NCBI GenBank assembly: GCA_963713975.1
Contig: OY970218.1
Coordinates: 1,728,001 to 1,792,000 of the forward strand
Length of the DNA: 64,000 bases
DNA from: an uncultured Chloroflexia bacterium
Lineage (GTDB): Bacteria > Chloroflexota > Limnocylindria > Limnocylindrales > CSP1-4
Direction: 5' to 3'
In this document: positions 1,611 through 29,006 of the stretch, in pieces
Numbering within the stretch: the stretch's first letter is position 1
How the letters are laid out: each line of letters begins with the position of its first letter
Program-made: the position numbers and the translations under genes
The notes under the pieces: model-generated
What the model saw: only the letters and a program-made list of their open reading frames with translations
What the model was told of the DNA's origin: nothing
Databases searched by the model: none

Positions 1611-1735
1611 GACAAGGGCTACTGGCGCAACACGCGACGAGACCCCGTCCGATGGCCGGGGTCCCAAGCGACCGGCTGATCAGATGTGTCGCCTATGTCG
1701 CGACTCATGTGTCGCCTATGTCGCGACTCAGGACG
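1611..1735 (+). mobile_element. IS481-family remnant: last transposase codons plus right end
   Basis: GACAAGGGCTACTGGCGCAACACGCG... closely matches 28804-28928; two perfect 23-bp repeats ATGTGTCGCCTATGTCGCGACTC at 1684-1729. Confidence 0.85.
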
Positions 1736-1736
1736 A

Positions 1737-1775
1737 TGGCGCGCCCGGAGGGATTCGGACGCGCGAGAACAACAC
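1737..1775. repeat. tRNA-Arg 3'-end copy (att core) plus arm GACGCGCGAGAACAACAC
   Basis: TGGCGCGCCCGGAGGGATTCG (21 bp) identical to 28930-28950. Confidence 0.85.
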
Positions 1776-1815
1776 GGTCCAGGTGCCTGGTAACCAGCAG
1801 TCCCGAGGGTCGAGG

Positions 1816-2691
1816 TCAGGCGTCCGACGGCGCGCAAGCGCGGATGAGACCGGCGGCCGCGTCGGGCTGGTAGTAGACGAGGTGACCGACGCCGTCGACG
1901 GCGATTGCACTGGCGCCTCGAACGGCGGCGAGGTGGCTCGCAATCCGGCGGAACACCGGCATCGATTCGGTGCCATGCAGGAACCGGATGTCGGCCGCCG
2001 CTCGCGCCAGCTGACCCTCATCGACCACCTCGTGCGTGAGGATGAGGAGGTCGTCACGCACGAGCGCCTCGGCGTTCATCTCCTCTCTGGCGGCGTACCA
2101 GTCCTTGCCCGCCGGAGGGACGACGACCTGATCGCCTCCCGGTACCGACGCCACGGCGCGCCTGAAGCCGGCAAGGGCTGCCAGCCAGTCGCCCGGGCGT
2201 AGCGCGAGCTGCTCGTCGATGGCCCGGCGGACCGGCTCCTGGATCGCCGCGCCGTCCGGGACATGTCCGAAGAGCCCGGGCTCGAACACGAGCGCCCTCC
2301 GGACGAGTCCTGGGTGGCGGAGCGCGAACTGCAGCGCGACGATGCCGGCCGAGCTGGCGCCGAAGACGACGACGTCGTTGAGCGCGAGGGCGTAGAGCAG
2401 GGCCGCCGCGTCATCGGCATGCTGTGCCGCGCCGTCGCCCGGCCAGCCGTCGCGGCCGCTCCGCAGGGTTCCGCGCCGATCGTAGGTCACGACCGTGAAG
2501 TCAGGCAGGCGCTCGGCGATCGGCCGCCACACCTCGGCATCCTCGCCGCCACCGTGGATCAGGAGCACTGCGGGCCCGGCCCCGCGGACCTCGACATGCA
2601 GCGTCGTGCCGTGCACGCGGCGCACGCTGATGCGAGGGGGGAGGGCGCCCGACAGGGCATCGGGGTTCCCGTTCAGTCGAGGCTGGGACAT
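1816..2691 (-). CDS. Alpha/beta fold hydrolase
   Basis: LLIHGGG, YDRRG, GASSAG nucleophile elbow, C-terminal GVGH; start trimmed to ATG 2691. Confidence 0.85.
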   Translation of the reverse strand: MSQPRLNGNPDALSGALPPRISVRRVHGTTLHVEVRGAGPAVLLIHGGGEDAEVWRPIAERLPDFTVVTYDRRGTLRSGRDGWPGDGAAQHADDAAALLYALALNDVVVFGASSAGIVALQFALRHPGLVRRALVFEPGLFGHVPDGAAIQEPVRRAIDEQLALRPGDWLAALAGFRRAVASVPGGDQVVVPPAGKDWYAAREEMNAEALVRDDLLILTHEVVDEGQLARAAADIRFLHGTESMPVFRRIASHLAAVRGASAIAVDGVGHLVYYQPDAAAGLIRACAPSDA

Positions 2692-2907
2692 CGTGGCTTG
2701 CACCCCGCAAGGACGCGCGTCCGGATTGGGCCTAGCGCTCGGACTCGATGAGCTCCGTGATTCGGCGGATGCTGTTCTCGAGCGGCATCGGGTCCAGCGG
2801 GCTGGGCGCGCCGGGGATGTCCACGCTGATGGGGAGCCTGCTGCTGCCATCGCCCGCCGGCTCGATCGACTGCCGTCCGCGCATCCATTTCTGCGGTTCG
2901 CTTGACC

Positions 2908-2955
2908 GTGTTGTTGTTCTGGCGCGCCCGGAGGGATTCGGACGCGCGCCAACAG
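2908..2955. repeat. att-like site: arm GTGTTGTTGTTC + tRNA 3'-end core + second arm
   Basis: Core TGGCGCGCCCGGAGGGATTCG at 2920-2940 identical to the tRNA end. Confidence 0.85.
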
Positions 2956-3013
2956 CCTTTCGAGTGCCGATCGAGGGCCGCGATGAGTGGCTGGCCGCGG
3001 CGCGGCGGCTGGC

Positions 3014-3253
3014 GTGAGAGCACGCCGACCCTCGGGACGCGCGACAGACCGTGAGGTCGGCGTGGTCGCCGCGGTCCTGGTGGCCGGGTCGGAGAAGGCC
3101 GCCGCCCATCCCCTCGGCCTGTCGCACTCGACGGTGAAGCACCACCTGGCGAACGCGCGATCGAAGGTCGGCGCGGCGACGACAGCGCAGCTCGTGTGGA
3201 TCTTGGCTCCGCGCCTGTCGGGGCCGGACGGCATACCCCGAACGGACGAATAG
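3014..3253 (+). CDS. Small LuxR-type helix-turn-helix protein
   Basis: TDREVGVV...LGLSHSTVKHHLANARSKVGA resembles the LuxR C-terminal HTH; start GTG 3014 (2987 is an alternative). Confidence 0.7.
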   Translation: MRARRPSGRATDREVGVVAAVLVAGSEKAAAHPLGLSHSTVKHHLANARSKVGAATTAQLVWILAPRLSGPDGIPRTDE

Positions 3254-3298
3254 CGGTCGGCCGTGCGCCTCTCGCCCCGACCATCCGGACGGACAGCC

Positions 3299-3937
3299 TC
3301 ATCTGGACCGCGCCTTGAGCAACCCTCGCTCGTAGGCCACGGCGACCGCTGCGGCGCGGTCGCTGACGTCGAGCTTCGCATAGATGTGGAGCAGATGCGT
3401 CTTGACCGTCGCCTCCGAGATGAAGAGGCGGGCCGCCGCGCCGCGATTGGTTTCGCCCTGTGCGACCTGGGTCAGGACCTCGAGCTCCCGTTCGCTCAAC
3501 GTGTCCTGGGCGGGCGCTCGGAGCTGGGTGACGAGTCGCGTCGCCACCGATGGCGCGAGGACGGCCTCGCCGCGGGCCGCCGCATGGATCGCCCGGACGA
3601 GCTCCTCGCGCGGCGTGTCCTTGAGTAGGTAACCCGTCGCGCCGGCCTCGAGCGCTGGCACCACGTCGATGTCCGTGTCGTAGGTTGTGAGGACGAGCAC
3701 CCTCGCCTGAACGTTCCGCTCCGCCAGTGCCCGGATGGCCGCCGCACCGCCGAGGCCGGGCATGCGGAGGTCCATGAGGATCACATCGGGCTGGTTTGAC
3801 TCCGCCATCGCCAGAGCTTCCACGCCGTCCGACGCCTCACCCACGACCTCGAGATCCGGATCGTTGGCGAGCATCCCACGGAGGCCGTCCCGTACGACCG
3901 GATGGTCATCGACAATGAGCAGCCGGATCGAGCTCAC
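3299..3937 (-). CDS. NarL/LuxR-family response regulator
   Basis: LIVDDHPVVR, DVILMDLRMP, GYLLKD, C-terminal LSERELEVL...TVKTHL. Confidence 0.95.
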   Translation of the reverse strand: MSSIRLLIVDDHPVVRDGLRGMLANDPDLEVVGEASDGVEALAMAESNQPDVILMDLRMPGLGGAAAIRALAERNVQARVLVLTTYDTDIDVVPALEAGATGYLLKDTPREELVRAIHAAARGEAVLAPSVATRLVTQLRAPAQDTLSERELEVLTQVAQGETNRGAAARLFISEATVKTHLLHIYAKLDVSDRAAAVAVAYERGLLKARSR

Positions 3938-5175
3938 GTCGCGCTGGCCGATGAGCCCGCGGCGATCGCGGGGACGCGCGCGGAGACCGCCGTCCCGGCG
4001 CCAGGCTCCGATTCGATGGCTAGCGAGCCGGCGACTCTGGCAGCCCGCTGACGCATCCCGCTGAGGCCGAACCTTGATCCGTCCGCGGCCGCACGTTCGG
4101 GGATGGTGAACCCGACACCGTCGTCGCGGACGTCGAGGGTGACGACATCCCCCATGAACGACACCGTCAGCCAGGCCCGGGTGGCACCAGCGTGCTTCGC
4201 GACGTTGGCCAGGGCCTCCTGGGCGATCCGCAGGAGGGTAACCTCGATGTCCGGATGGAGGGCGATGACCTCGCCGGTCACCGTCACGTCGACCGGGATG
4301 GCGTTGATCTCGGACCACTCGCGCGCGACATTGGTCAGCGCCTCGGGCAATGTCCCGGATTCCAGCGCCTCGGGCACGGATGCCTCGAGCGAGCGGCGGG
4401 CCTCGGTCAGGCTCTCGCGGGCCAGCCGCTGGGCAGTCTCGAGGTGGCGATCCCGATCGGCCAGTCGGTCACGCGACTGATCGGCCGCCTGGAGCTGGGT
4501 GATGATCCCGGTCAGGCCCTGGGCGATGGTGTCGTGGATCTCACGGGCCATCCGCTGCCGCTCGTCGAGCACGCCGGCCTCGCGCGCCTGAGTCAGCAGC
4601 TGGGCATGCAGACCGGCGTTCTCCACCATCGCCGCCTCGAGCCGAGCGAGCGCCTGTCGGCGCTCCTCGGTCTGCTCGGCCACCCTCTCGCTGACGATGA
4701 CGCCGCCACCGAGCACGATCGTCTGGATGACGATGATCGCGAGGTAGAACGTCCACCCCTCGGGCGTGATCGGGAGGCCGAAGATGAGGGTGTTCACGAG
4801 GATCGATGTCGCGCCGACACCGACGACCGCGAGCGGGATCGGCCGCAGGATCGAGGCGTAGAAGAAGCCGCTGATCATGAAGATGAAGAACACCGGCTGC
4901 CGGAGCATCAGGATCGACGCGAAGACGAGCACCCCGACGAAGAACAGGTCGATCCGGAGCCGCGGATCCCGCCGGGGCGGCGGCAGCCGGCTGTACAGGA
5001 CGTAGATCCAGCCGGCAGCCGCGGCCGCGATCGCTAGGGTCGTCACTCTCCAGGCCGGATCCGGGTCGCTGCCGATCAGGGCGAGGACGGTCGCAAGCGC
5101 GAGGAACGCGTAGCCGCATCGGGCCACCAGGGCGTCTTCCAAGCGCTCCCAGGCCGGCTTCGTGGATTTGTTCAT
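3934..5175 (-). CDS. Membrane sensor histidine kinase (HisKA_3 type)
   Basis: ERQRMAREIHDTIAQ, QEALANVAKHA, DDGVGF, FGLSGM; N-terminal TM helices. Confidence 0.95.
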   Translation of the reverse strand: MNKSTKPAWERLEDALVARCGYAFLALATVLALIGSDPDPAWRVTTLAIAAAAAGWIYVLYSRLPPPRRDPRLRIDLFFVGVLVFASILMLRQPVFFIFMISGFFYASILRPIPLAVVGVGATSILVNTLIFGLPITPEGWTFYLAIIVIQTIVLGGGVIVSERVAEQTEERRQALARLEAAMVENAGLHAQLLTQAREAGVLDERQRMAREIHDTIAQGLTGIITQLQAADQSRDRLADRDRHLETAQRLARESLTEARRSLEASVPEALESGTLPEALTNVAREWSEINAIPVDVTVTGEVIALHPDIEVTLLRIAQEALANVAKHAGATRAWLTVSFMGDVVTLDVRDDGVGFTIPERAAADGSRFGLSGMRQRAARVAGSLAIESEPGAGTAVSARVPAIAAGSSASAT

Positions 5176-5224
5176 CCCGGAACGCTACCCCAGACCATCG
5201 GCGGCCGGATCGGCGGCGTGGCCG

Positions 5225-5959
5225 TCACTCCCATCGAAAGACGCGGACGGCGAGCGCGCCGAGCACGACGCTGATGATCGCCATGCCGACGAGCGGCCCC
5301 AGTTGTGGCGCCGTTCCCAGCCATGCGTCCTGGAGACCCTGCACGCCTGGAGGCGTGAACTCGCCGATCCGGACCAGGATGTCGGGCAGGAATACTCGTG
5401 GCAGGTAGACACCACCCAGGAACATCACGACGAAGAACAGCGGGATGGTCAGCGCCGTCGCCGTGCGGTTCGACGGCACGACCGCCGCGATGAGGAGCCC
5501 GATCGCGAACAGCGACGTCGTCCCGAGCAGGAACGCGGCGATGTAGCCGATGGGGTGCCCCGGCAGCGGGACGTCGAAGCCGACGCGGGCGACGACGACG
5601 AGCAGCAGCAGGGAGATGACCGCGGTGACCAGATAGATGACGAGCTGCGCCCCCAGCAGCCGGAGCGGGTGGGCTGGCGTTGTCGAGAGCCTGCGCAGGA
5701 CCCCCTTCTCGCGATACGTTGCCAGGCGGATCGGCAAGGTCTGGATGCCGAGCGTCCCCACGGAGATGACGACCAGCGACGGCACGAACACGTCGATGAA
5801 GCGCAGGCCACCGAGTGCGGGATCGGGCTCGGCCGGCCCGAAGATGGAACCGAAGATCAGCAGGATGACCGTCGGCAGAGCGATCGCCGCGAGCCACGAG
5901 ATGGGATCGCGGAACAGCAGCTTCGCCTCGGTCACGAAGAGCGACCGGAACTCGTTCAT
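5225..5959 (-). CDS. ABC-2 type exporter permease
   Basis: About six TM segments, YREKGVLRRL, C-terminal FRWE. Confidence 0.9.
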   Translation of the reverse strand: MNEFRSLFVTEAKLLFRDPISWLAAIALPTVILLIFGSIFGPAEPDPALGGLRFIDVFVPSLVVISVGTLGIQTLPIRLATYREKGVLRRLSTTPAHPLRLLGAQLVIYLVTAVISLLLLVVVARVGFDVPLPGHPIGYIAAFLLGTTSLFAIGLLIAAVVPSNRTATALTIPLFFVVMFLGGVYLPRVFLPDILVRIGEFTPPGVQGLQDAWLGTAPQLGPLVGMAIISVVLGALAVRVFRWE

Positions 5960-6882
5960 GACACCTCCTTCGCGGTGCGCGCTGACAGGCGGCCCGCGAG
6001 GGCGAGGAACGCGTCGTCGAGATTCGGCTGTTCGATCCTGAGGTCGTTGGCCACGATCCGGTGCCGGGCCAGGACCGATGTGACGGCCCCGATGAGGTTG
6101 CCGGTGCCGGTCACGACGACGACCGGGCCCGTCCGCTCGACGCTCCGAACCTCCGAAAGGTCAGTGAGCAATCGGTCGGCGATCGGCGCCGACGGTCGGA
6201 ACCGCAGCCGCTGCTCCGGGCTGACCATGGAGACGATGCCAGCCGGCGTATTGAGCGCGATCAGCCGGCCATCGCCGAAGACCGCGACGCGATCTGCAAG
6301 GCGCTCCGCTTCTTCCATCAGGTGGGTCACGAGGAGGACGGTGACGCCGCGGTCGCGGATCGACTCGATGAGCTGCCAGGTCTCGCGGCGAGCCTGCGGA
6401 TCCAGCCCGGTCGACAGCTCGTCCAGGATGGCGATCCTCGGCCGGCCGACGAGGGCGAGGGCGATCGACAGGCGCTGCTTCTGGCCGCCGGACAGATCCC
6501 GATAGGCCGAATCGCGCTTGTCGCCGAGACCGAGTCGGTCGATCAGCTCGCGCCGATCGGCCGGCTCCGCGTAGAACGACGCAAAGAGGTCGAGGGCCTC
6601 GCTGACGGTCATGCGATCGGGCAGCTCGCTTTCCTGGAGCTGGACGCCGACGAGGGTCCGGAGCCGCTCGCGATCTCGCCAGGGATCGAGCCCGAGGACC
6701 GTGATCGTGCCGCTATCGGCCGTTCTGAGACCCGCGATCAACTCGATCGTGGTCGTCTTGCCGGCGCCGTTCGGTCCGAGGATGCCGAAGATCTCGCCCT
6801 CCGCGATGGAGAACGACACGTTGTCGACGGCCGCGCGGTCGCCGTAGTGCTTCCGGAGGTTGGAGACCTCGATGACATTCAT
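5956..6882 (-). CDS. ABC exporter ATP-binding protein
   Basis: GPNGAGKTT, LSGGQKQR, ILDELSTGLDP; start ATG 6882. Confidence 0.95.
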   Translation of the reverse strand: MNVIEVSNLRKHYGDRAAVDNVSFSIAEGEIFGILGPNGAGKTTTIELIAGLRTADSGTITVLGLDPWRDRERLRTLVGVQLQESELPDRMTVSEALDLFASFYAEPADRRELIDRLGLGDKRDSAYRDLSGGQKQRLSIALALVGRPRIAILDELSTGLDPQARRETWQLIESIRDRGVTVLLVTHLMEEAERLADRVAVFGDGRLIALNTPAGIVSMVSPEQRLRFRPSAPIADRLLTDLSEVRSVERTGPVVVVTGTGNLIGAVTSVLARHRIVANDLRIEQPNLDDAFLALAGRLSARTAKEVS

Positions 6883-6950
6883 GAGACAAGGCTCGCCGAC
6901 TGGACCCAGCGAGCGCATCGGCCGCTTGGCCACAACCGCGTTGTCGAACC

Positions 6951-6979
6951 GGTGGACGGGGAGTCCACCATTCGGTGGA
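6951..6979. promoter_or_regulatory. Inverted repeats, probable response-regulator operator
   Basis: TCCACC-ATTC-GGTGGA (6964-6979) overlapping GGTGGAC..GTCCACC, upstream of the ABC/TCS operon. Confidence 0.35.
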
Positions 6980-7175
6980 TGCGCGACCTCGAACGCGTTG
7001 CCGACCTCGTACGTCGTTGCGATGCGCTGGACGGCGCATTGCACGGGTCAAGCGCTGCCGCTTCAGCGAGCGGTGGGCAAGGCAGCGCAACCTCGGCCAC
7101 GACGCCCATGGCCGCGACGGGCGTGATCCAGGAGCGGACCGCGGGAGCACGGACGACGGTCTCGGTGGGTGGGGC

Positions 7176-7553
7176 CTACCTTGGCCCGAGGGTCTCTACA
7201 TAGGTCCAGCTCCGTACGAACCAGGGTCGGAACTCGTCCGGACGCTGCAGCAGGCTGACGGGCACGACCACGAACTCCTTCATCTGCCGGCCGTACTGCA
7301 TCGAGAGGCGGGACTCGTATCGCTCGATGAAACGCTCCCGATCGGCGGCATCGAGTCGGATAGCGACGTCGCCTTCCTTGTCGATGAAGCTCGTCATGTG
7401 TCCGTTCCGTGAGGTGTACGGGTTCCCGGCGCCTTTGCGCTCGACGCCGGGCACGGAGGCGACGATTGCCTCGTACAGGACGAGGCGATCGGCGGGTCCC
7501 TGGTACGTGGCTCTGGCCACTGTCCTCTCCCCGTCCTCCTCGATCCCAAGCAT
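7176..7553 (-). CDS. Small conserved-type hypothetical protein (TfoX-like)
   Basis: PYTSRNGHMTSF...YGRQMKEFVVVP...WFVRSWTYV; family is an impression only. Confidence 0.55.
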   Translation of the reverse strand: MLGIEEDGERTVARATYQGPADRLVLYEAIVASVPGVERKGAGNPYTSRNGHMTSFIDKEGDVAIRLDAADRERFIERYESRLSMQYGRQMKEFVVVPVSLLQRPDEFRPWFVRSWTYVETLGPR

Positions 7554-7617
7554 GGCTTGATAATCGTAACGTGACCGTCGGATCGCCAACTACCGACGAC
7601 CGGGGGACCGCGGATGA

Positions 7618-7655
7618 ATGTCGCGACCCTGTCGCCGATGTCGTGACTCAAGACA
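7618..7655 (+). mobile_element. Degenerate IS481 right end
   Basis: ATGTCGCGACCCTGTCGCCGATGTCGTGACTCAAGACA resembles the 28877-28928 end and terminates in ACA. Confidence 0.7.
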
Positions 7656-7656
7656 T

Positions 7657-7673
7657 TGGCGCGCCCGGAGGGA
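7657..7673. repeat. tRNA-Arg 3'-end copy (att core)
   Basis: TGGCGCGCCCGGAGGGA identical to 28930-28946. Confidence 0.85.
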
Positions 7674-7820
7674 AGTGAGCGCGCTTTGCCAACCTTCGTG
7701 GTTGAGGGCGTCGAGCGCCTCGTCTCAGCCTTGCGAGCGGCGTGACTTCAGCAGCTGCTTCGCGATGACAACCCGGAGGTTGACGCACTGCCAGGCCCGC
7801 AGCGGGTCGCAATCGGTCCA

Positions 7821-7848
7821 TTGACAATGCATTGTAAATTGATATAGT
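7821..7848 (+). promoter_or_regulatory. Sigma70-type promoter with palindromic operator
   Basis: TTGACA-16bp-TATAGT; palindrome ACAATGCATTGT at 7824-7835; ATG 7 nt after the -10 element. Confidence 0.65.
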
Positions 7849-7855
7849 GACGCGG

Positions 7856-8209
7856 ATGACGACGACCTCCCAGCCTCCGGCGCTTCCCCCGCTCTCCCGG
7901 GCCGCGATGCACGTCCTGCTCGCCATCGGGCCTGAGGAACGCCACGGCTACGCGATCATGGGGGAGGTCAGCCGAATCACCGGTGGCTCGATCCGCCTCG
8001 GACCCGGCGCGATCTACACGACGATCCGGCGCCTGCTCGATGACGGCCTGATCGAGGAGTCCGACGAGCGGCCCGAACCCGAGATGGATGACCAACGGCG
8101 GCGCTACTACCGGCTGACCGCGGTCGGGCGGTCGGTGGCGACGGCCGAGGTCCGTCGCCTCGACGCCCTCGTGCGGGCGGCCAGCCCGTGGGCCCTCGAG
8201 TCGGGCTGA
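7856..8209 (+). CDS. PadR-family transcriptional regulator
   Basis: HGYAIM, LGPGAIYTTIRRL, RRRYYRLT. Confidence 0.92.
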   Translation: MTTTSQPPALPPLSRAAMHVLLAIGPEERHGYAIMGEVSRITGGSIRLGPGAIYTTIRRLLDDGLIEESDERPEPEMDDQRRRYYRLTAVGRSVATAEVRRLDALVRAASPWALESG

Positions 8210-9033
8210 TGGACCCGCTCGGCGCGTCCCACGAGCGCCTCTACCGCCGGCTCCTCCGCTGCTACCCGGCCACGTTCCGGGCGCGCTTCGGCGAGGAGAT
8301 GGTCCAGCTGTTTGGCGACCAGCTGCGGGATGCGCGAATGGCCCGGCATGGGACGGGCGCGACCGAGGTCTGGCTGCGGGCCATCGGCGACATCGTCGTC
8401 AGCGCAGCGTTCGAGCATGCACGCGGGGATCGGACGATCGGGCACTCGCTCTCGGTCGCGCCGTCCAGGTGGACCCGGCTCCTCGGGTTGGTGGGGATCG
8501 TGGGTGGGGCCTGGATCGTCGCGTGGCTCCTCCCGTTCATCCCGTGGGGTCCCGAGGGCGTGAACCTCAGGCTGATGGCGTTCAATCTCGGTGCGATCGC
8601 GATTGTCATCGCCCTCGCGCGGCGGCTGCCGTCGTCGGCACGTCTCGCCGCGGCGATCGCCTCCCTCGCGGTGCTCGCGAACGCCGCGTACCTGCTCATG
8701 GCCGTCCTGTCGCTCGGCAGACCCGTGCCACCGCAGCCGGATCCCGCCTTCCGGCTCACCTGGTTCTGGGTCGGCGTCGCAATGTGGTGGGCGGACGCGG
8801 CGTTCGGGTTCGTCGCGTTGCGGTTCGGCGGGATCGCCCGGCTGGGTGCCGCCGCGCTCGCCGTTGGGTCTGTCCTCGCATTCCTGGGCATGGACCGACT
8901 GGAGCTCGTCATCGGCCCGTACAAGGACCTCATCGTGCCGCTCGCGCTGCTCGGGATCACGCTCAACGGCGTCGGCTGGATCCTGCTCGGGCTCGACGTG
9001 GCCACCCGTCGGCGCCCGGTCCCGGCTTCGTAG
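8209..9033 (+). CDS. PadR-associated membrane protein
   Basis: LYRRLLRCYPATFRARFGEEM N-terminus typical of PadR partners; several TM helices; TGATG coupling. Confidence 0.8.
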   Translation: MDPLGASHERLYRRLLRCYPATFRARFGEEMVQLFGDQLRDARMARHGTGATEVWLRAIGDIVVSAAFEHARGDRTIGHSLSVAPSRWTRLLGLVGIVGGAWIVAWLLPFIPWGPEGVNLRLMAFNLGAIAIVIALARRLPSSARLAAAIASLAVLANAAYLLMAVLSLGRPVPPQPDPAFRLTWFWVGVAMWWADAAFGFVALRFGGIARLGAAALAVGSVLAFLGMDRLELVIGPYKDLIVPLALLGITLNGVGWILLGLDVATRRRPVPAS

Positions 9034-9053
9034 ATGCCGCCGACGCGCAGTTT

Positions 9054-9507
9054 CGGTTCGAGGCCGCCGTCCCCAACGAGATATGGCAGTCCGACCTCAC
9101 CTACTGGCACCTCGCCGACGGCACCGGGGTTGAGATCATCAGCTGGCTCGACGACCACTCCCGCTACCTGCTCGCGGGCGCCGGGCGCGGCGCACCCGGC
9201 CACTTCCGCCTCCGCTACGACAGCGCTGACAAGAAGGGGGCGATCACCCTGCGCCGCGCCGGTCGCCTGCACCACCTCAAGATCGGGGCAGCCCACGCTC
9301 GCCGGCGCGTCCTCGCCATCGTCGACGAGCAGGAGGTCACGGTCGTCGCGCTCGACACGGGCGAGATCCTCTCGACCCACCGGATCGATCCCGCCAAGGG
9401 CTACTGGCGCAACCTACGACGAGACCCCGGCCGATGGCCGGGGTCTCCAGCGACTGACTGACTCACATGTCCCGACTCATGTGACTCATATGTCGCGACT
9501 CATGACA
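9054..9507 (+). pseudogene. IS481 transposase remnant, 5'-truncated with in-frame internal deletion, intact right end
   Basis: RFEAAVPNEIWQSDLTYW...LDDHSRYLLA joined to GHFRLRYD...KGYWRN..DPGRWPGS; ends ...GACTCATGACA. Confidence 0.9.
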
Positions 9508-9509
9508 AA

Positions 9510-9548
9510 TGGCGCGCCCGGAGGGCGTCGGGCGCGCAGGAACAACAC
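9510..9548. repeat. tRNA-Arg 3'-end copy plus arm CGTCGGGCGCGCAGGAACAACAC
   Basis: TGGCGCGCCCGGAGGG at 9510-9525. Confidence 0.85.
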
Positions 9549-9681
9549 GAGTCAGCGGCTCATCACGCGATCGAGCCCAGCGATCGAGACGCCGCGTCGA
9601 TTCGGTGGAGCGTACGCTGAGGTTGCTGCCGCGGCCGCACAGCGGATGTTCGGCTGCCGGCTGGTGCTGAGGAGGGCCTGG

Positions 9682-18436: not shown

Positions 18437-18622
18437 CGCGCCGCGGTGCTCCTTCTCGCGCACCGGCCCGACCCCAGGGCCGAGCCACGCCGCTGTTCCC
18501 GTCGCCCTCCGGTGCCCCTTCCTTAACCGCGAGGCTGCGGATCGGCCGGCGTGCCCGCCGGAGCCAAGAACGGCCGTCCTCGTGGCTCCGTTGAGCTCCC
18601 GGAGCCACACGGGCTCGTGTCC

Positions 18623-20146
18623 ATGACCTCCAGGCTGCACGTCGTCTACATCCGCCGCTCGATGAAGCGCGAAGGCGACGCCGACGTGTCCGACGAGACG
18701 CAGGAGGCCGTGGCCCGGTCCCGGCTGCCCGCCGATGCCATGGCCGAGGTCATCCGCGATTCGGGTGGCCACTGCTCCGGGTACACCGACCAGCGGCCCG
18801 GGTACCAGCGCCTGCTGGAGCTGGTGCGGTCGGGGGCTGTCGCCGGGATAGCCGCTTACGACGACAGCCGGCTCAACCGCAACGCCGAGAACGCCCTCGG
18901 CCTCCACCGCGAGTGCCTGCTCCGCGGCGTGAGCCTGTACACCAGCTCCACCCCTGCCGGAGCGCTCTTCGAGTCGGGCGGCAAGCTCAACTACAGCATC
19001 CAAGCGGTGGTCGCCGAGTTCTACCGCAACCAGCAGAGCGAGCGGATGAAGGCGATGTTCGCCCAGACGTTCGCCGTCGGCGGGCATCGCGGTCAGGATC
19101 CCTTCGGGTACGCGACGGCCCGTGACCACCTCCGTCGCGTGGTCCACCCGCGCCGCCTCGAGATCGTGCCCGAGGAGGCTGACGTCGTCCGCCAGGTCTT
19201 CGCGGAGCTCGCCGAGATGCCGTTCTCGGAGATCAGCGATCGTTTCAACGCCGGGGGCGTCCTCCGGCCAAGGAGCGGCCCGTGGACCGCGGACGCGGTC
19301 AAGGCGATCTGGGACCGACGATGGGTGTACCTCGGCTTCGTTGTTCGTGGCCGTGGTCACGACGATCGTCACGCCGGGCAGCACGAGCCGATCATCACTG
19401 AAGAGGAGTTCCGGGCCGCACTCGCGGCCGTCGAGGCGCGCAAGCGTGGTCGAGGCAAGGCGCCGCGCTCGAGCCGGCGGGTCTACCTGCTTCGTGGTCT
19501 CGCGTTCTGTTCCTGCGGCAGCCGGATGCGCGGCGACGCCCGTGTCCGGAACGGACGGGAGTACCGCTACTACGCCTGCCCGGTCTCCGACGGCCGCGGT
19601 AGATGGCTCGGGCCGACCGGGGAGGAGCTCAGCTGCCAGGAGCGCCGCATCCGAGCTGAGGTCGCAGAGGCCGACGTCCTGTACGCAGTGCGCGCGCTGG
19701 TCCTTCCGGCGGCCGTCATCGACCTCGCCCGCGAGGAGCTGGCCAGGCGCCTCGCTCTCGCGCCGCCGGATCTCACCGAAAGCCAGCGCCGCACGCTCAA
19801 GGTCCGGCTCGAGAACCTGCGAAAGCAGCACGAGTGGGGCGACATCGACGACCCCGAGTACCGGGCGGCCCGCGAAGCGCTCGAACGACAGCTGATGCTC
19901 CTGCCCGACCCCGACAAGGTCGTCGGCCTCGATCAGCGCCGCAAGGTCCTGGTTTCGATGGCCGAGAACCTCGAGCGCGCGACCCCGTTGCAGCGGCGTG
20001 CGATCGTCGAGCTGCTGGTCGAGCGGGTCACGATCGCCGACCGCTCGGTCCGCGCCACCCTTTGGGCTGAGGCGGCGCGCGCGTTCCTCCCGGGTGCGCC
20101 AGCGCACCAGGAGTCGCCGGCGGATCACCGGCCGAGCGCGGGATAG
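18623..20146 (+). CDS. Large serine recombinase (integrase)
   Basis: VYIRRS catalytic Ser, SG..QRPGYQRL, SRLNR, PFGY, zinc ribbon CSCGSRM...YYAC...C, coiled coil. Confidence 0.93.
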   Translation: MTSRLHVVYIRRSMKREGDADVSDETQEAVARSRLPADAMAEVIRDSGGHCSGYTDQRPGYQRLLELVRSGAVAGIAAYDDSRLNRNAENALGLHRECLLRGVSLYTSSTPAGALFESGGKLNYSIQAVVAEFYRNQQSERMKAMFAQTFAVGGHRGQDPFGYATARDHLRRVVHPRRLEIVPEEADVVRQVFAELAEMPFSEISDRFNAGGVLRPRSGPWTADAVKAIWDRRWVYLGFVVRGRGHDDRHAGQHEPIITEEEFRAALAAVEARKRGRGKAPRSSRRVYLLRGLAFCSCGSRMRGDARVRNGREYRYYACPVSDGRGRWLGPTGEELSCQERRIRAEVAEADVLYAVRALVLPAAVIDLAREELARRLALAPPDLTESQRRTLKVRLENLRKQHEWGDIDDPEYRAAREALERQLMLLPDPDKVVGLDQRRKVLVSMAENLERATPLQRRAIVELLVERVTIADRSVRATLWAEAARAFLPGAPAHQESPADHRPSAG

Positions 20147-20235: not shown

Positions 20236-23200
20236 TCAGGCGGCGACAGCCGTCGCGCGGACTCTCTTGAGCGTCGCGATGAGCTGGTCGACATCCGCCC
20301 CGGCGAAGAGCCCGTCCGGCCCGAACGGGGCGATGTCCGTGAAGGGCGACTCGTAGAGCAGCTCGGCCCTCATGAAGCCGTGCTCGGTCAGGTGGTCGAC
20401 GATCAGGTTGACGAACTCGATCTGGTTCGCGGTCAGGGTCCGCCCGGCCAGGAAGTCGCCGAACGCCTCCTTCGCCGCGGCTCGGTCGAGCCCGACGAGG
20501 GTCCTGACGAACAGCCCGAGCCCCTCGGACTCCGCCTTGGCGCGCTCGAGCGCGCCCTTGTCGCCGACGCCGCTCTCGAGGAGCATCCGTTCGAGCTCGG
20601 CCAGATCGGTCGGCGTCAGTGGTCGGTTCATGCGCAGCTTGCGTATGGCCGCGTGGTCCTGGTGCTCTCGCAGGAACGCTTGGGCCTTGGCGCGGAACTT
20701 CTCGAAGTCGATCCCGGCCACAAGGCCCGGCAGGCCGATCTCGACCTCGGCGCCCATCAGGTCCTCGAAGTCGACGTAAAGGACACGACGCCGCGCCTTC
20801 TCGATGAACGGGACTAGGTCGCGCAGGTGCCGCCGCGCGCGCTCCAACATCGGGAGCGTGACGTGGATCCACCAGTCGTCGGTCTGGACCTCCTCGATGA
20901 GCGCAAGCTGGGCTCTGACCATCGGGATGGCGGCCTTCTCCTCGAGGATCGACGCGATCGCCTTCACCTGGTCGCGCAGCCCCTCGAACGCGGGAAGCGA
21001 CCGGAGGAAGGCGAGCTCGAGGTTGAGCACGAGCAGGTCGAACCGCCTGGTCTCCTCGGCCTCGGCGTCGAGTCTCGGCCGGCAGCCCGGCGACGTGGGT
21101 CGCCAACTCCGCCCGGTCCTCGGCCGACAGCGGCCCCCACGCCTCCGGCTGCCGGAACCGCTCGACGAGGCGCCGCTGCGGGCGGACCAGGAAGTTGTCC
21201 AGGTTCATCGCCGCGACCTCGCCGTGCAGCGACGCCGCAAAGGCTCGCCGGACCTCCTCGTCGGTGCTCGGGTCGCCGTAGACGGGGGCCGCCGGCGCCG
21301 CTGCCCTCGTCGCATCGCCGCCTGGGCGTTGGTCAAGCGCCGCGACGAGCTCCATGCGCCGGATGAAGAGCTTCTTGCTGAGCGGCTCGGCGACCGAGCC
21401 CTCGGTCATCGGCGCGTCCTGGCTGAAGTACTCGAGGTTCCCGCAGTAGTCGAAGAGCCGGAACTTGCTCTTGTCGTCCCCGGGACCGAAGAGGTCGGGG
21501 CACAAGCGCGTCCCCCGGCCCAGCATCTGCCAGAACTTGGTCTTCGAGCGGACGAGCTTGAAGAGGACGAGGTTCACGACCTCGGGGATATCGATCCCGG
21601 TGTCGAGCATGTCGACCGAGATCGCGATGTGCGGGGCCTTGTCCTTGGCGGAGAACCAGTCGATGAGGCTTTGCGCGTACTCGGTCTTGAAGGTGATGGT
21701 GCGCGCGAATTCGCCGCGGTAGTGCGGGTAGTTGGCGTTGAACCGCTCGGCGATAAAGTCCGCGTGCGCCTGGTTCTTGGCGAAGACGATCGTCTTGCCA
21801 AGCCGGTCGCCGCCCGCGACCTTAATGCCGCGCTCCATAAGGTGCGCGAGCACCTTGTCGACTGTGTCGACGTTGAACAGCCAGCGGTTGACAGCCTCGG
21901 CAGTGACGGTGTCCGGCGGGTCGTCTCTCCCACTCGAGCGCGTCGTACGCGTCCTTCTCGTCCTCGGAAAGCTCGTCGTACTTGATGCCCTCACGCTGGA
22001 ACTTCAGCGGGACCGACACCGCCTCGGGCGGGACCAGGAAGCCGTCACGGACGGCCTCCTCGAGCGAGTAGGCGTCCGTCGGGACGCCGGTCTCGAGGTC
22101 GAACAGGCCGTAGGTGTTGCGGTCGACCTCGTCCTTAGGTGTCGCCGTCAGCCCGACCAGGAGAGAATCGAAGTAGTCGAAGATCGCACGATACTTTGCG
22201 AAGACCGAGCGATGGGCTTCGTCGATAACCACGAGGTCGAAGTGTCCGGCTCCGAACCGGCGCTGCCCGTCGGTCGCCTCATCGATCAGGCCCATCATGG
22301 TCGGGTAGGTCGAGACGAAGACGCGGCCCTCACCCGCCGGGTCGTCGAGGAGGTTCACGGGCGATGCCTCGGGGAGGAACGCCTTGAAGGCGTTCGTCGC
22401 CTGCCGAACGAGCGCGACCCGGTCCGCCAGGAAGAGGATGCGCTTGGCCCAGTTGGCGCGCATCAGCAGGTCGGCGAGCGCGATGATGGTGCGGGTCTTG
22501 CCCGCACCAGTTGCCATGACCAGGAGCGCCTTGCGCTGGCGGTCGCTCTCGAAAGACTCGGCTATCCGGCGGATGGCGCGGGTCTGGTAGTAGCGCTCGA
22601 CGATCGTCGGACTGATCGACGCTGTCGCCAAGGGCCTTGCGGCTCGTGCGGCGCTGGACCAGCAGCTCAAGCTCAGCCCTCTTGTAGAAGCCCGATACCC
22701 GGCGCGGCGGGTAATGCGCGTCGTCCCAGAGCCAGTGCTCGTAGCCGTTCGAGTAGAAGATGACCGGGCGTCGGCCGAACCGCGCCTCCAGGCAGTCGGC
22801 GTACAGGCTCGCCTGCTGCTGGCCGGCCCGCGGGTCGCGGCGGGTCCGCTTGGCCTCGACCAGGCCGAGCGGGAGTCCGTCGTCTCCCCAGAGGACGTAG
22901 TCGACGAAGCCGCGGCCGTCGCCGTTCGGCATGCCGGCGACCTCGAACTCGCGGTCGCGAACCTCGGCGAGTGGCCAGCCGGCCTCCTTGAGCAGGAGGT
23001 CGATGAAGTAGTCGCGTGTATCGGCCTCGGAGTAGTCGTGGAGGTCAGGCTGCGTCGCGGCGGCCTTCCTGGCGGCCGCGACCTCGGCACGCAGCCGCCT
23101 CAGTTCCTCGTCGAGCACGCCTTTGTCCGAGAGTAGTGCCGCGAGCTTCTCGTCCCGTTCGCGCAGACTCGCCTCCAGACGCCGCAACTGATCCGCAGTC

Positions 23201-23646
23201 TGCGGCTCGGCCGTCCCTGACTTGGGAAGCGCCCCGGCATCGAACGTTAAGCCGGGCGCCGGTCTTCCCATGCGCCCGTAAGTGCGGGCGAACCAGTAGG
23301 TGACGTGGAAGAGCTCGCGCACAGCGGCCAGGGCATCGACGGCCGGCACGGCGCCGTGGCTGTGCACCGCCCGGTTCCCGAGAGTGTTGATCACGCGGGC
23401 CTTGCTGAACACGGCTTCGCCGGCAGACTGCTTGAAGCTCGGCTCATGGATCAGCGCAGATAGGTTGTCCTGATACGGCAGCCTGAGCCCGACATCGTGT
23501 TTGTAGGCCCAGCTCACCGCCAGCTCCAGCGCGCGACGAGCATAGAAGCATGCCGCGCGCGGGTCGCTGTGCACGGCGGCTTCCGCCTTCGAGGCAGCCT
23601 CGAAGACCGACGCCCATTCAGGCTGGAGGAAAGCGAACTGGCTCAC
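20236..23646 (-). pseudogene. hsdR: Type I restriction enzyme R subunit (EcoEI/EcoAI-like) broken by three +1 frameshifts
   Basis: DUF4145-like N-terminus, VDYVLW..LVEAK, MATGAGKT, DEAH, LTATP, QMLGRGTR, LYESPFTD C-terminus spread over four ORFs; extra bases near 22635, 21926 and 21073. Confidence 0.85.
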
Positions 23647-27586: not shown

Positions 27587-27612
27587 GTGTGTTGTTCTGG
27601 CGCGCCCGGAGG
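27587..27612. repeat. att arm GTGTGTTGTT + 16-bp direct repeat CTGGCGCGCCCGGAGG
   Basis: 27597-27612 is identical to 28929-28944. Confidence 0.9.
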
Positions 27613-27684
27613 TGTCTGAGTTCACGACATAGGTGACACCTGATAGGGCACACATGAGTCGGGACATGCGTGACAGTCCGCCGC

Positions 27685-28872
27685 ATGTCGAAGCACCGCG
27701 TGTCCGTCCTCAAGGTCGTCTCTGGGCAGCTGTCCGTCACCGCCGCCGCAGCGGAGTGCCACCTCTCCCGGGGCCATCTACAGCGGCTCCTCGCCAGGTA
27801 CCGGGAGGCCGGCCTCGACGGCCTGGAGCCCCGGTCCCGTCGGCCGCGGACGAGCCCCCATGCGGTGCCCGACGGCGTCCGTGCCCGGATCACCGCGCTG
27901 CGGACGGAGCTTGCCGGGCGGGGTCTCGACGCCGGTCCTGCCACCATCGCCTGGCACCTGGAGCGCGAGGGCCTGACGGTGCCCTCGACCTCCACGATCC
28001 GCCGGGTCCTCCACGCCGCGGGCCTCGTCGTGCCCGAGCCGCACAAGCGGCCCCGGAGCTCCTGGATCCGCTTCGAGGCGGCCGCGCCCAACGGGGTCTG
28101 GCAGGCGGACTTCACCCACTGGCGGCTCGCCGACGGGAGCGGGGTCGAGATCGCGAGCTGGCTCGACGACCACTCCCGCTTCCTGCTCGGGTGCACGGTG
28201 TTCCGCCGGGTCAGCGGCGACGACGTGGTCGCGACCTTCACCGCCGCCGGCGACGAGCACGGCTGGCCCGCCGCCACGCTCACCGACAACGGGACCGTGT
28301 ACACCGCCCGGCTGGTCGGAGGTCGCAACGGCCTCGAGCACCTGCTCGCGTACCTCGGCATCCGCCAGAAGAACGGGGCTCCTGGCCACCCCCAGACCCA
28401 GGGGAAGGTCGAGCGCTTCCACCAGACCCTCAAGCGCTGGCTGGCACGGCAGCCACGCGCGCGGACCCTCGCGGCGCTCCAGGCCCAGCTCGACGCCTTC
28501 CGCGACGTCTACAACGAGCAGCGGCCCCACCGGGCGATCGGCCGGCGGACACCCGGCGAGGCGTACCGGGCGATCCCGAAGGACCGGCCATCGGCCCCCG
28601 CCGGCCGCGGCCACTTCCGCCTGCGCTACGACACCACCGATGCCAAGGGTGCCATGACCCTGCGCCGGGCAGGGCGCCTTCACCACCTCAAGGTCGGCCA
28701 GGCCCACGCCCGCACCAAGGTGCTCGCGATCGTGGACGAGCAGGCGGTCACGGTCGTCGCCCTCCACACGGGCGAGATCCTGTCGGCCCATCGCATCGAG
28801 CCCGACAAGGGCTACTGGCGCAACACGCGGAGAGACCCCGGCCGATGGCCGGGGTCTCAGGCGACCGGGTGA
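27685..28872 (+). CDS. IS481-family DDE transposase
   Basis: N-terminal HTH, SRRPRTSP, WQADF, TDNG, GKVERFH, YNEQRPH. Confidence 0.95.
   Translation: MSKHRVSVLKVVSGQLSVTAAAAECHLSRGHLQRLLARYREAGLDGLEPRSRRPRTSPHAVPDGVRARITALRTELAGRGLDAGPATIAWHLEREGLTVPSTSTIRRVLHAAGLVVPEPHKRPRSSWIRFEAAAPNGVWQADFTHWRLADGSGVEIASWLDDHSRFLLGCTVFRRVSGDDVVATFTAAGDEHGWPAATLTDNGTVYTARLVGGRNGLEHLLAYLGIRQKNGAPGHPQTQGKVERFHQTLKRWLARQPRARTLAALQAQLDAFRDVYNEQRPHRAIGRRTPGEAYRAIPKDRPSAPAGRGHFRLRYDTTDAKGAMTLRRAGRLHHLKVGQAHARTKVLAIVDEQAVTVVALHTGEILSAHRIEPDKGYWRNTRRDPGRWPGSQATG
28832..28858. terminator. Perfect GC hairpin inside the transposase 3' end (possible terminator or processing signal)
   Basis: GAGACCCCGGCC-GAT-GGCCGGGGTCTC; also at 9421-9447 and, imperfect, near 1639-1664; no U-tract. 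Confidence 0.35.
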
Positions 28873-28929
28873 CTCCATGTGTCGCATATGTCGCGACTCA
28901 TGTGTCGCACATGTCGCGACTCATGACAC

Positions 28930-29006
<77 letters not shown>

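Follow-up and report, generated by a model that had tools for sequence, protein, structure and literature searches.

Why should four right ends of an IS481-family insertion sequence (IS) lie one or two nucleotides from the 3'-end sequence of a single transfer RNA (tRNA), always in one orientation, within one stretch of bacterial DNA? The question is raised by a stretch of 64,000 nt from an uncultured Chloroflexia bacterium (assembly GCA_963713975.1, contig OY970218.1, positions 1,728,001 to 1,792,000), called the window hereafter; its host genome, G000, is one contig of 3.62 Mb. Here we analyzed the junctions of the window, collected homologous elements from other genomes (the loci carry L-numbers) and compared their flanking sequences. 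It is very probable, taken as a whole, that these elements form a clade of the IS481 family which is site-specific for tRNA 3' ends, that a 15-mer of the donor site can be carried along with them, that the T arm of the target is read, and that the older insertions of the window were displaced from the tRNA gene.

The junctions of the window are GACTCAGGACG-A-TGGCGC (right end to 1736, tRNA-end copy from 1737), GACTCAAGACA-T-TGGCGC (7655/7657), GACTCATGACA-AA-TGGCGC (9507/9510) and GACTCATGACA-C-TGGCGC (28928/28930), all on the + strand. A search for the pattern of a right IS end, 1-3 nt and TGGCGC gave these four matches and no other in the window, with 0.00 expected from 100 dinucleotide-preserving shuffles, which confirms the arrangement reported in the earlier note. 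In reverse complement the sequence TGGCGCGCCCGGAGG corresponds to the final 15 nt of tRNA-Arg(TCG), encoded CCA included, and it has six exact matches in the window (1737, 2920, 7657, 9510, 27598 and 28930), only the occurrence at 28930 being within a gene. Accordingly only the fourth junction adjoins the real tRNA-Arg(TCG) gene; the junctions at 1737, 7657 and 9510 adjoin copies of its last 21, 17 and 16 nt, and the copy at 2920 has no IS beside it. The four IS copies show 76% mean column identity in the nucleotide alignment (A1), their spacers (A, T, AA, C) and the lengths of the adjoining tRNA-end copies are unlike, and the relic ending at 9508 has a 10-nt deletion and is of a different subtype, so that duplication of a single insertion, which the earlier note had also doubted, does not account for them. 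The reading of the same string (...ACA, 1-2 nt, TGG and tRNA complement) as the primer-binding site of a retroelement is ruled out by the real tRNA gene, by the IS481 transposase and by the lack of a reverse transcriptase in the region.

The fourth junction belongs to an intact element, the parts of which are given below.

27597..27612, + strand: left copy of the perfect 16-nt direct repeat, C+TGGCGCGCCCGGAGG, composed of 1 nt of flank and the terminal 15 nt of tRNA-Arg
27613..28928, + strand: intact IS481-family element of 1316 bp, with imperfect terminal inverted repeats TGTCTGAGTTCACGACAT... / ...ATGTCGCGACTCATGACA
27670..28872, + strand: transposase gene of 400 amino acids, with N-terminal helix-turn-helix (HTH) domains, an rve/rve_3 DDE core and a C-terminal extension of ~100 residues
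28929..28944, + strand: right direct repeat of 16 nt, which is the real 3' end of the tRNA gene
28930..29006, - strand: tRNA-Arg(TCG), the target gene (ARAGORN; Rfam RF00005, 68.1 bits), its 3' end 1 nt from the right IS end

The element begins with TGT (TGTCTGAG... at 27613) and ends with ACA (...CATGACA at 28928), the same ends being present across the collected loci. Owing to the perfect 16-nt direct repeat the tRNA-Arg(TCG) gene is intact, and the transposase gene and the tRNA gene are convergent. The transposase matches rve_3, rve, HTH_32, HTH_28 and LZ_Tnp_IS481 (23.2 bits, cut-off 22.2) in Pfam, and NCBIfam NF033577 (IS481) with 248.3 bits (cut-off 224) over residues 12-299 only. The residues D147, D206 and E248 do not vary among the 26 transposases aligned, and conservation is strong over residues 315-394; residues 300-400 are an extra domain, specific to the clade and highly conserved within it, and the transposases have an invariant YWRN...PGRWP motif. 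In a PDB profile search the matches listed covered the catalytic core alone (profile positions ~125-295) and were retroviral integrase cores. Between the 16-nt repeats only the transposase is encoded and there is no tyrosine or serine recombinase; the non-coding stretches at the two ends are 57 and 56 nt long, and no Rfam RNA was matched within the 1316 bp. One credible open reading frame (ORF) and no Rfam RNA agree with the observation of the earlier note that no helper or guide gene is visible. The 3' end of the transposase gene contains a perfect 12-bp palindrome with a 3-nt loop (28832-28858), which encodes the invariant PGRWPG and is retained in the relics; it could be a terminator against tRNA read-through or a protein binding site.

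Outside the window a second intact IS was found in G000 (3178511-3179826), 100% identical over 1316 bp and 1 nt from tRNA-Val(TAC), along with partial IS copies. Two further right ends are thus added to the four of the window, one at this tRNA-Val(TAC) and one at a degenerate tRNA-Arg(CCG) end, and all 6/6 IS right ends recovered by the right-end motif search are followed within 0-2 nt by TGG and tRNA-end sequence. Three extra motif matches with three mismatches, on the other strand of G000, have no IS homology.

The collection of homologues was done from three sources. The first comprised 60 relatives, and 9/61 genomes (the window's own included) matched at E <= 1e-60; at this threshold a homologue was present in 8/36 same-genus genomes and in 0/24 genomes of a second family. 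The second was a public genome collection from which the best 80 of 537 relatives were taken, at 60-91% identity; the hosts of these 80 are Limnocylindria-type Chloroflexota and Actinomycetota (Microbacterium, Solirubrobacterales, Nocardioides, Propionibacteriaceae). A cultured host is also included, the complete genome of Microbacterium sp. CJ88 holding loci L103, L105 and L107. The third was a sample of 250 genomes of the phylum, the tallies of which include G259, from which no data were used. IS ends were found by regular expression and records with identical flanks were removed.

This gave 92 distinct right ends, of which 5 are at contig ends and 87 are assessable, and all of the latter (87/87, not to be taken as 87 independent events because the sampled genomes are related) lie at tRNA 3'-end sequence. 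The orientation is the same in 86/87, and the single opposite case, L067, has a perfect 16-nt repeat. A real tRNA on the opposite strand, called by ARAGORN, adjoins 63/87 right ends and represents 22 anticodon types, at an offset of 0 nt in 12, 1 nt in 37, 2 nt in 3, 3 nt in 10 and 4 nt in 1. Junctions of tandem copies, in which a 15/16-mer lies between the right inverted repeat (IRR) and the left inverted repeat (IRL), make up 10/87, and the last 13/87 adjoin tRNA-end copies of the partial, chimeric or hairpin kind. Of the 63 real-tRNA sites 29 are at Arg tRNAs, an excess which may reflect shared ancestry of the sampled genomes. An independent ARAGORN-based script found an opposite-strand tRNA starting 48-103 nt past the transposase match in 54/80 collection loci; the other 26 end at a contig end (9), are the first of a tandem pair (2) or show tRNA-end-like sequence after the right end (15). 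The earlier note had proposed that a lone DDE transposase targets tRNA genes at a fixed position and in a fixed orientation, and that homologues be tabulated against the nearest tRNA 3' end; the tabulation sustains the proposal, and homologues sitting mostly at non-tRNA sites were not what was found. As judged from these flanks, the elements constitute a clade spanning two phyla, each with a single transposase and a precise tRNA-end site, and the phenomenon is far broader than the window.

The flanks were then compared for target duplication. Both flanks are available for 64 elements: the repeats are perfect in 38 (15 nt in 10, 16 nt in 26 and 17 nt in 2), in 6 the 15-mer is identical but the outer base is not, 4 show a single mismatch and 16 at least three. 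Such lengths of 15-17 nt are at or just above the upper limit quoted for the IS481 family in PMC10045372 (2-15 bp). The distance from the IRR to the box T[CT]GAA of the T loop is 19 nt in 46, 18 nt in 16 and 20 nt in 1, and the box and the inner end of the repeat are 3 nt apart in 30/33. The duplicated segment corresponds to tRNA positions 62-76 and measures 15-16 nt even where CCA is not encoded; in Actinomycetota tRNA genes which lack an encoded CCA the spacing to T[CT]GAA is kept as well, so that the ruler lies in the T arm or the acceptor stem, within the tRNA gene body, and not in the CCA or the transcript end.

Loci L049 and L051 are 100% identical IS copies of one genome at tRNA-Arg(CCG) and tRNA-Arg(TCT), each with its own perfect 16-nt repeat. 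The tRNA-Val site which is occupied in the host is empty in 7/9 relatives' loci, and all 7 share the upstream gene and the order tRNA-Val, tRNA-Leu, tRNA-Leu. Comparison of these sequences indicates that the repeat is a true target duplication and that the element is mobile. At one of the empty tRNA-Val sites (L030, genome G008) three tandem copies of the 15-mer TGGTGGGCGGTGGAG are found at the tRNA end without an IS, and in L009 and L010 two or more tandem 15-mers lie to the left of the IS; from their sequence the tandem 15-mers of these three loci are likely footprints of repeated insertion and loss.

On these grounds a single DDE transposase joins the IRL between tRNA positions 61 and 62, 3 nt from the T-loop TCGAA, on the antisense strand, and the IRR is joined 15-17 nt away, 0-2 nt past the CCA. 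Gap repair then duplicates the last 15 nt of the tRNA, leaving the gene whole, with the transposase gene converging on it. The join positions, the duplication and the converging orientation are shown by the flanking sequences.

Not every flank is explained by simple duplication. The Val-site IS of G000 has the native tRNA-Val downstream region on its left (syntenic with the 7/9 relatives' loci), yet directly beside the IS stands the 15-mer of tRNA-Arg(TCG), which has 5 mismatches in 15 with the tRNA-Val end. By its sequence the obvious donor is the identical copy at tRNA-Arg(TCG). A foreign left 15-mer is also seen in L012 (= L068), L013 (= L079), L064, L070, L071 (a mosaic) and L073, while L045, L048 and L066 have a foreign or mosaic Arg-type 15-mer at their right side, where it is joined to the body of a Gln or Gly tRNA on which ARAGORN makes no call. 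L048 at least is a truncated tRNA copy, with an intact tRNA-Gly ~2 kb away. In the tandem pair L011, whose members are 87% identical, the outer 16-nt repeat fits the tRNA-Pro target and the inner spacer does not. The outcome in all these flanks indicates that a donor-site 15-mer can travel with the element.

In the transposing form IRR and IRL would be separated by a single donor-site copy of 15-16 nt, either at the junction of a circle or as the spacer of a tandem dimer, and this 15-mer would sometimes be left at the new site instead of a copy of the new target, the spacer strands being kept at one junction via flap ligation or short-homology resolution. Copy-out/paste-in transposition with such intermediates is known for IS3-type elements. 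Recombination between IS copies was rejected as the source of the hybrid flanks, at the Val copy because the left flank beyond the 15-mer is native, and at L045, L048 and L066 because the mismatch with the tRNA body is confined to the 15-mer. A gene conversion tract that extends no more than 15 nt beyond the IS is a formal possibility.

How, then, did three truncated copies of the window come to lie at tRNA-end sequence which is not part of a gene? The relics and the sites beside them are as follows.

1611..1736, + strand: IS right-end relic of 126 nt, 89% identity to IS positions 1192-1315
1737..1778, + strand: tRNA-Arg(TCG) 3'-end copy (21 nt) with hairpin partner and inverted flank GAACAACACGGTC; fold z = -2.90
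2906..2953, + strand: IS-free palindromic site with native-type flank GTGTTGTTGTTC, 21-nt tRNA end and GACGCGCGCCA; fold z = -2.57
7616..7655, + strand: most decayed IS right-end relic, ~40 nt (alignment A1)
7657..7702, + strand: tRNA-Arg(TCG) 3'-end copy (17 nt) with hairpin partner; weak fold, z = -0.93
9034..9508, + strand: IS of a different subtype, truncated and internally deleted (IS positions 457-577 and 996-1316, 83% and 80% identity)
9510..9552, + strand: tRNA-Arg(TCG) 3'-end copy (16 nt), hairpin partner, then GAACAACAC; 9-bp stem, 8-nt loop, z = -4.35

The tRNA-end copies are imperfect palindromes of ~48 bp, composed of outer flank, acceptor-like strand, loop, tRNA end and inverted flank. 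The three truncated copies are probably older insertions at one real tRNA-Arg(TCG), which were displaced together with its old 3' end by DNA integrating into the 3' part of the tRNA. Four elements would have inserted successively at tRNA-Arg(TCG), with islands or cassettes entering the 3' part of the tRNA between the insertions; with each integration the previous 3' end would be shifted outward along with its IS, the older IS copies would decay there, and the new IS would land on the rebuilt tRNA end. This history would be compatible with all the flanks.

A lesser but serious possibility is that the three truncated copies were inserted directly into tRNA-end hairpin copies which already existed, each being a separate target. 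It draws on L050, a near-identical young IS with a perfect 15-nt repeat inside a hairpin site, and on the fact that each relic of the window adjoins a copy with 16 nt or more identical to the tRNA end; the two histories predict the same flanks. What speaks for displacement is that at least 10 hairpin-type copies in G000 have no IS and that real tRNA genes make up 63/87 of the sites.

A relic of the same kind as the truncated IS of the window is present in L006 (G000 1204721-1207838), where positions 1206221-1206338 hold the last ~118 nt of the IS, identical to window 9391-9508. On its left it is fused to the 5' part of a LuxR/AAA-type regulator gene, and on its right it adjoins a degenerate tRNA-like sequence of ~90 nt with a tRNA-Arg(CCG)-type end, which is not called by ARAGORN.

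The next question is what the transposase recognizes. Most simply, the conserved T-arm box would be read as duplex DNA, probably via the extra C-terminal ~100 residues; this step is the weakest part of the explanation. The limits of the clade bear on the role of the C-terminal part. Matches of 45-47% identity which include the C-terminal part are still at tRNA ends (L117, L118): in L118 a T and then a tRNA-Ala(GGC) end come after the right end, with a tandem junction on the left, and L117 has a tandem junction and a relic tRNA end. Matches of 33-38% identity, aligned to about residue 305-347 only, have a tRNA within 1.5 kb in 0/18 loci, and these elements sit in palindromic repeats of the GGGGAGAGGG/CCCTCTCCCC type. 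They include L119-L135, IS481 elements of Chloroflexota genomes (G220, G229, G273, G297, G318) with 6-7 copies per genome, and they may represent a different site preference inside the same family. Since tRNA siting is found only in relatives which align to the C-terminal part, the preference accompanies the extra C-terminal domain, a link that stands as a correlation across the aligned sequences.

Rather unlikely, in our estimate, is that the same targeting is achieved by means of a tRNA-like structure (an extruded acceptor/T minihelix), a host factor bound to the tRNA gene, or a nucleic-acid guide (the tRNA 3' end or the carried spacer). Young or intact IS copies lie beside hairpin copies in which no more than 16-21 nt of the tRNA end are left and the T-loop box is absent (L050, L013/L079, L092), the hairpin copies fold as 9-bp stems ending in CA, the duplicated segment is positions 62-76 irrespective of an encoded CCA, and the distant relatives of the clade insert into palindromic repeats, all of which would suit a structure or a guide. 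The hairpin-adjacent copies are also explained by later integration behind the IS, however, and for a guide RNA there is no room in the 57 + 56 non-coding nt and no Rfam match. Moreover an identical IS with an Arg spacer landed at tRNA-Val despite the 5/15 mismatches, and unrelated tRNAs are targeted within one genome (Gly/Arg, Asn/Arg, His/Asp, Ser/Ala), so the carried spacer is not a strict guide. Homing guided by the spacer was rejected on account of these unrelated targets within single genomes. Improbable, too, is the version in which the transposase reads no DNA sequence at all and acts as a tRNA-guided single-protein DDE integrase, the tRNA 3' end or the carried spacer pairing with the target, or a tRNA-like structure serving instead, with the hairpins as true landing pads and a heritable memory of the last target.

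The displacement history requires DNA which enters tRNA 3' ends. IS-free sites of ~48 bp are also present, one at window 2920 and others in arrays close to tRNA-Arg(CCG) and tRNA-Pro(CGG), and they bound cassettes of one or a few genes which contain no recombinase. In the window a hydrolase is encoded by one cassette (1819-2692), an ABC transporter and a two-component system by another (3302-7044), and a membrane protein and a PadR regulator by a third (7847-9030); from the 9510 copy to the intact IS there extends an island of 18 kb which encodes a type I restriction system as well as a serine recombinase. The arrangement is reminiscent of a cassette array with tRNA genes as its anchors. The recombinase of the island is the following gene.

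18527..20146, + strand: large serine recombinase gene (Pfam Resolvase, Recombinase, Zn_ribbon_recom), candidate integrase for islands entering Arg tRNA 3' ends

G000 has three large serine recombinase genes, all downstream of Arg tRNA genes. The frame at 1303291-1304943 runs into the 3' end of tRNA-Arg(CCG) (1304879-1304954), and the frame at 2958645-2960246 runs into the 3' end of tRNA-Arg(CCT) (2958611-2958686). Integration of islands into the 3' part of tRNA genes is thus probably carried out by large serine recombinases. Islands with a tyrosine integrase were rejected as the origin of the tRNA-end copies, only three such genes being present in G000 and none near the arrays.

Side observations were also made on these regions. 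Exact tRNA-end copies of 14 nt or more occur in G000 at 816549, 821221 and 830235, near tRNA-Pro(CGG) (834206-834282), and tRNA-Arg(CCG)-type copies at 1173586, 1196778, 1198546 and 1206339, and also at 1668029, at window 2920 and at window 3270-3283; the palindromes of the arrays mimic an acceptor stem ending in CCA. Examples of cassettes in G000 are an adenosine-deaminase-like gene (1197003-1198055) and a LuxR-type ATPase of 991 amino acids (830607-833582). About 70 nt of the 3' end of the recombinase gene at 1303291-1304943 are repeated beside the tRNA-end copy at 1173586. In the island of the window hsdR is apparently split into at least three overlapping frames (20239-23646; EcoEI_R_C, ResIII/helicase and HSDR_N/DUF4145), and hsdS and hsdM look intact. 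At window 2960-3253 a conserved mini-ORF of 17 codons (MPIEGRDEWLAAARRLA) followed by a small LuxR-type HTH gene lies beside hairpin tRNA-end copies, and the same pair is found beside G000 1173586, 1196778 and 1198546 and in L050 and L079, covering two Arg types and different genomes; it may be a conserved module of island ends.

The earlier note had also suggested that the older copies mobilized adjacent cargo. This finds no support, as the cassettes are bounded by the palindromic tRNA-end sites which occur without an IS as well. We regard it as very unlikely that the IS itself mobilizes neighbouring cassettes, for instance in large circles re-inserted as IS-cargo-IS units, although L050-cargo-L049 and the window both have the order IS, tRNA-end copy, cargo, IS and tRNA, several cassettes lack a recombinase, and tandem IS pairs can move as units (L011). 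Many cassette boundaries have neither IS nor relic, the ~48-bp boundaries have the dyad symmetry which recombinase sites typically show and IS ends do not, and serine recombinase genes adjoin two Arg tRNA ends.

Several points weigh against the explanation preferred here, namely a tRNA-end-specific clade with T-arm reading, carriage of the donor 15-mer and displacement in the window. The constant distance to TCGAA is equally compatible with a ruler in the acceptor stem. L050, an IS which differs from its sister copies by only 2 nt and has a perfect repeat, lies beside a hairpin copy which has no T-loop box, and L013, L092 and the three relics of the window resemble this case; such sites imply that the integration behind the IS is of very recent date, or else that targeting needs no more than the last 15-16 nt (or a hairpin). 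The serine recombinase of the window is ~9 kb from the tRNA and has no recognizable flanking tRNA-end copy, and no recombinase was found near the arrays of the tRNA-Pro(CGG) type. The circular or tandem-dimer intermediate, whose IRR-IRL spacer would be one copy of the donor repeat, is something we infer from flanking sequence. Lastly, the sampled genomes are related and partly redundant, with duplicates removed only by identical flanks, and a few loci (e.g. L044, L083, L115) were assessed only by the ARAGORN-based script.

Hardly credible is a passive association without any target preference, in which the repeats would serve an integrase-borne island as attachment sites, or the four copies would have come from one insertion by segmental duplication: tRNA 3' ends are classic integrase sites and G000 does contain arrays of tRNA-end copies, but the repeats bracket exactly the 1316-bp IS, which encodes no integrase, identical copies stand at different tRNAs each with its own matching repeat, relatives have empty sites, 22 anticodon types are hit in two phyla, and the window copies differ in sequence and spacer.

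To our knowledge, site-specific insertion of bacterial DNA needs a recombinase with an attachment site, a multi-protein machine of the Tn7 type, or an RNA guide. In the present case a DDE transposase of 400 residues seems to direct a 1.3-kb element to one defined phosphodiester bond in nearly any tRNA gene, with a single orientation and no damage to the gene, in two phyla. If confirmed, this would provide sequence evidence for a donor target duplication travelling with the element, would suggest a compact protein for insertion at conserved safe sites, and would change how arrays of tRNA-end copies beside tRNA genes are read in genome annotation.

In the literature searched, which gave partial coverage and did not include ISfinder, no report of tRNA targeting by IS481-family elements was found, nor was a strict tRNA-end site preference found described for the family. 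With the other members (IS481 of Bordetella; ISMac4 and ISA0963-1, which have 15-bp repeats; the eukaryotic IS481EU) the elements share one DDE transposase without frameshift and TGT...ACA termini; they differ in the strict tRNA-end site, the strong orientation bias and the extra C-terminal ~100 residues outside the IS481 model. IS481 itself has the target NCTAGN. The family survey gives target duplications of 2-15 bp, mostly 6 bp, and puts repeats of ~15-16 bp on record for some IS481 members and IS481EU (Kojima 2023, PMC10045372); the word 'tRNA' occurs 0 times in PMC10045372. If our explanation is confirmed, the long-repeat IS481 elements gain a biological rationale, because a stagger of 15-16 bp rebuilds the tRNA end.

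The nearest parallel in behaviour is the IS1202-family subgroup at XerCD sites. This ISAba32 subgroup targets XerCD recombination sites, and the family also has subgroups with repeats of 15-17 bp and of 27-28 bp (Siguier et al., bioRxiv 10.1101/2022.12.17.520857). Both are plain single-transposase IS elements which insert at a fixed distance and with a fixed end at a short functional site bounding small cassettes; in IS1202 the 5-bp-repeat subgroup is the one which targets xrs, whereas here a long-repeat element is targeted, and to the end of a tRNA gene. The transposase was not recognized as IS1202-type, ISNCY_2 giving 86.5 bits against a cut-off of 250 and IS481 being the best NCBIfam model, with no dedicated IS1202 model tried.

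Tn7-like transposons home to tRNA genes. Together with the type V-K and I-B CRISPR-associated transposons they share the DDE superfamily, the TGT/ACA ends and the harmless insertion downstream of a tRNA in one orientation; they need TnsC and TnsD/TniQ or a guide RNA complex, in contrast to the single ORF in 1316 bp of the present element. According to PMC11406308, additional proteins or guide RNAs bring Tn7-type elements to tRNA genes. IS110/IS1111 elements combine a DEDD transposase with a guide RNA region, whereas here there is an rve DDE enzyme and 57 and 56 non-coding nt.

The use of tRNA genes as safe and conserved landing sites, with the gene end regenerated by a repeat, is shared with integrase islands, casposons, Ty3, the TRE elements of Dictyostelium and Dada. 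Casposons have a repeat of ~14-15 bp and target tRNA-Pro, and Dada elements are reportedly DDE transposons specific for small-RNA genes. In these systems either the enzyme differs (tyrosine or serine recombinase, Cas1, or a long terminal repeat (LTR) integrase with RNA polymerase III (Pol III) factors) or the domain of the host does, and the elements described here would, if confirmed, be a bacterial counterpart to the targeting of tRNA genes by eukaryotic retrotransposons.

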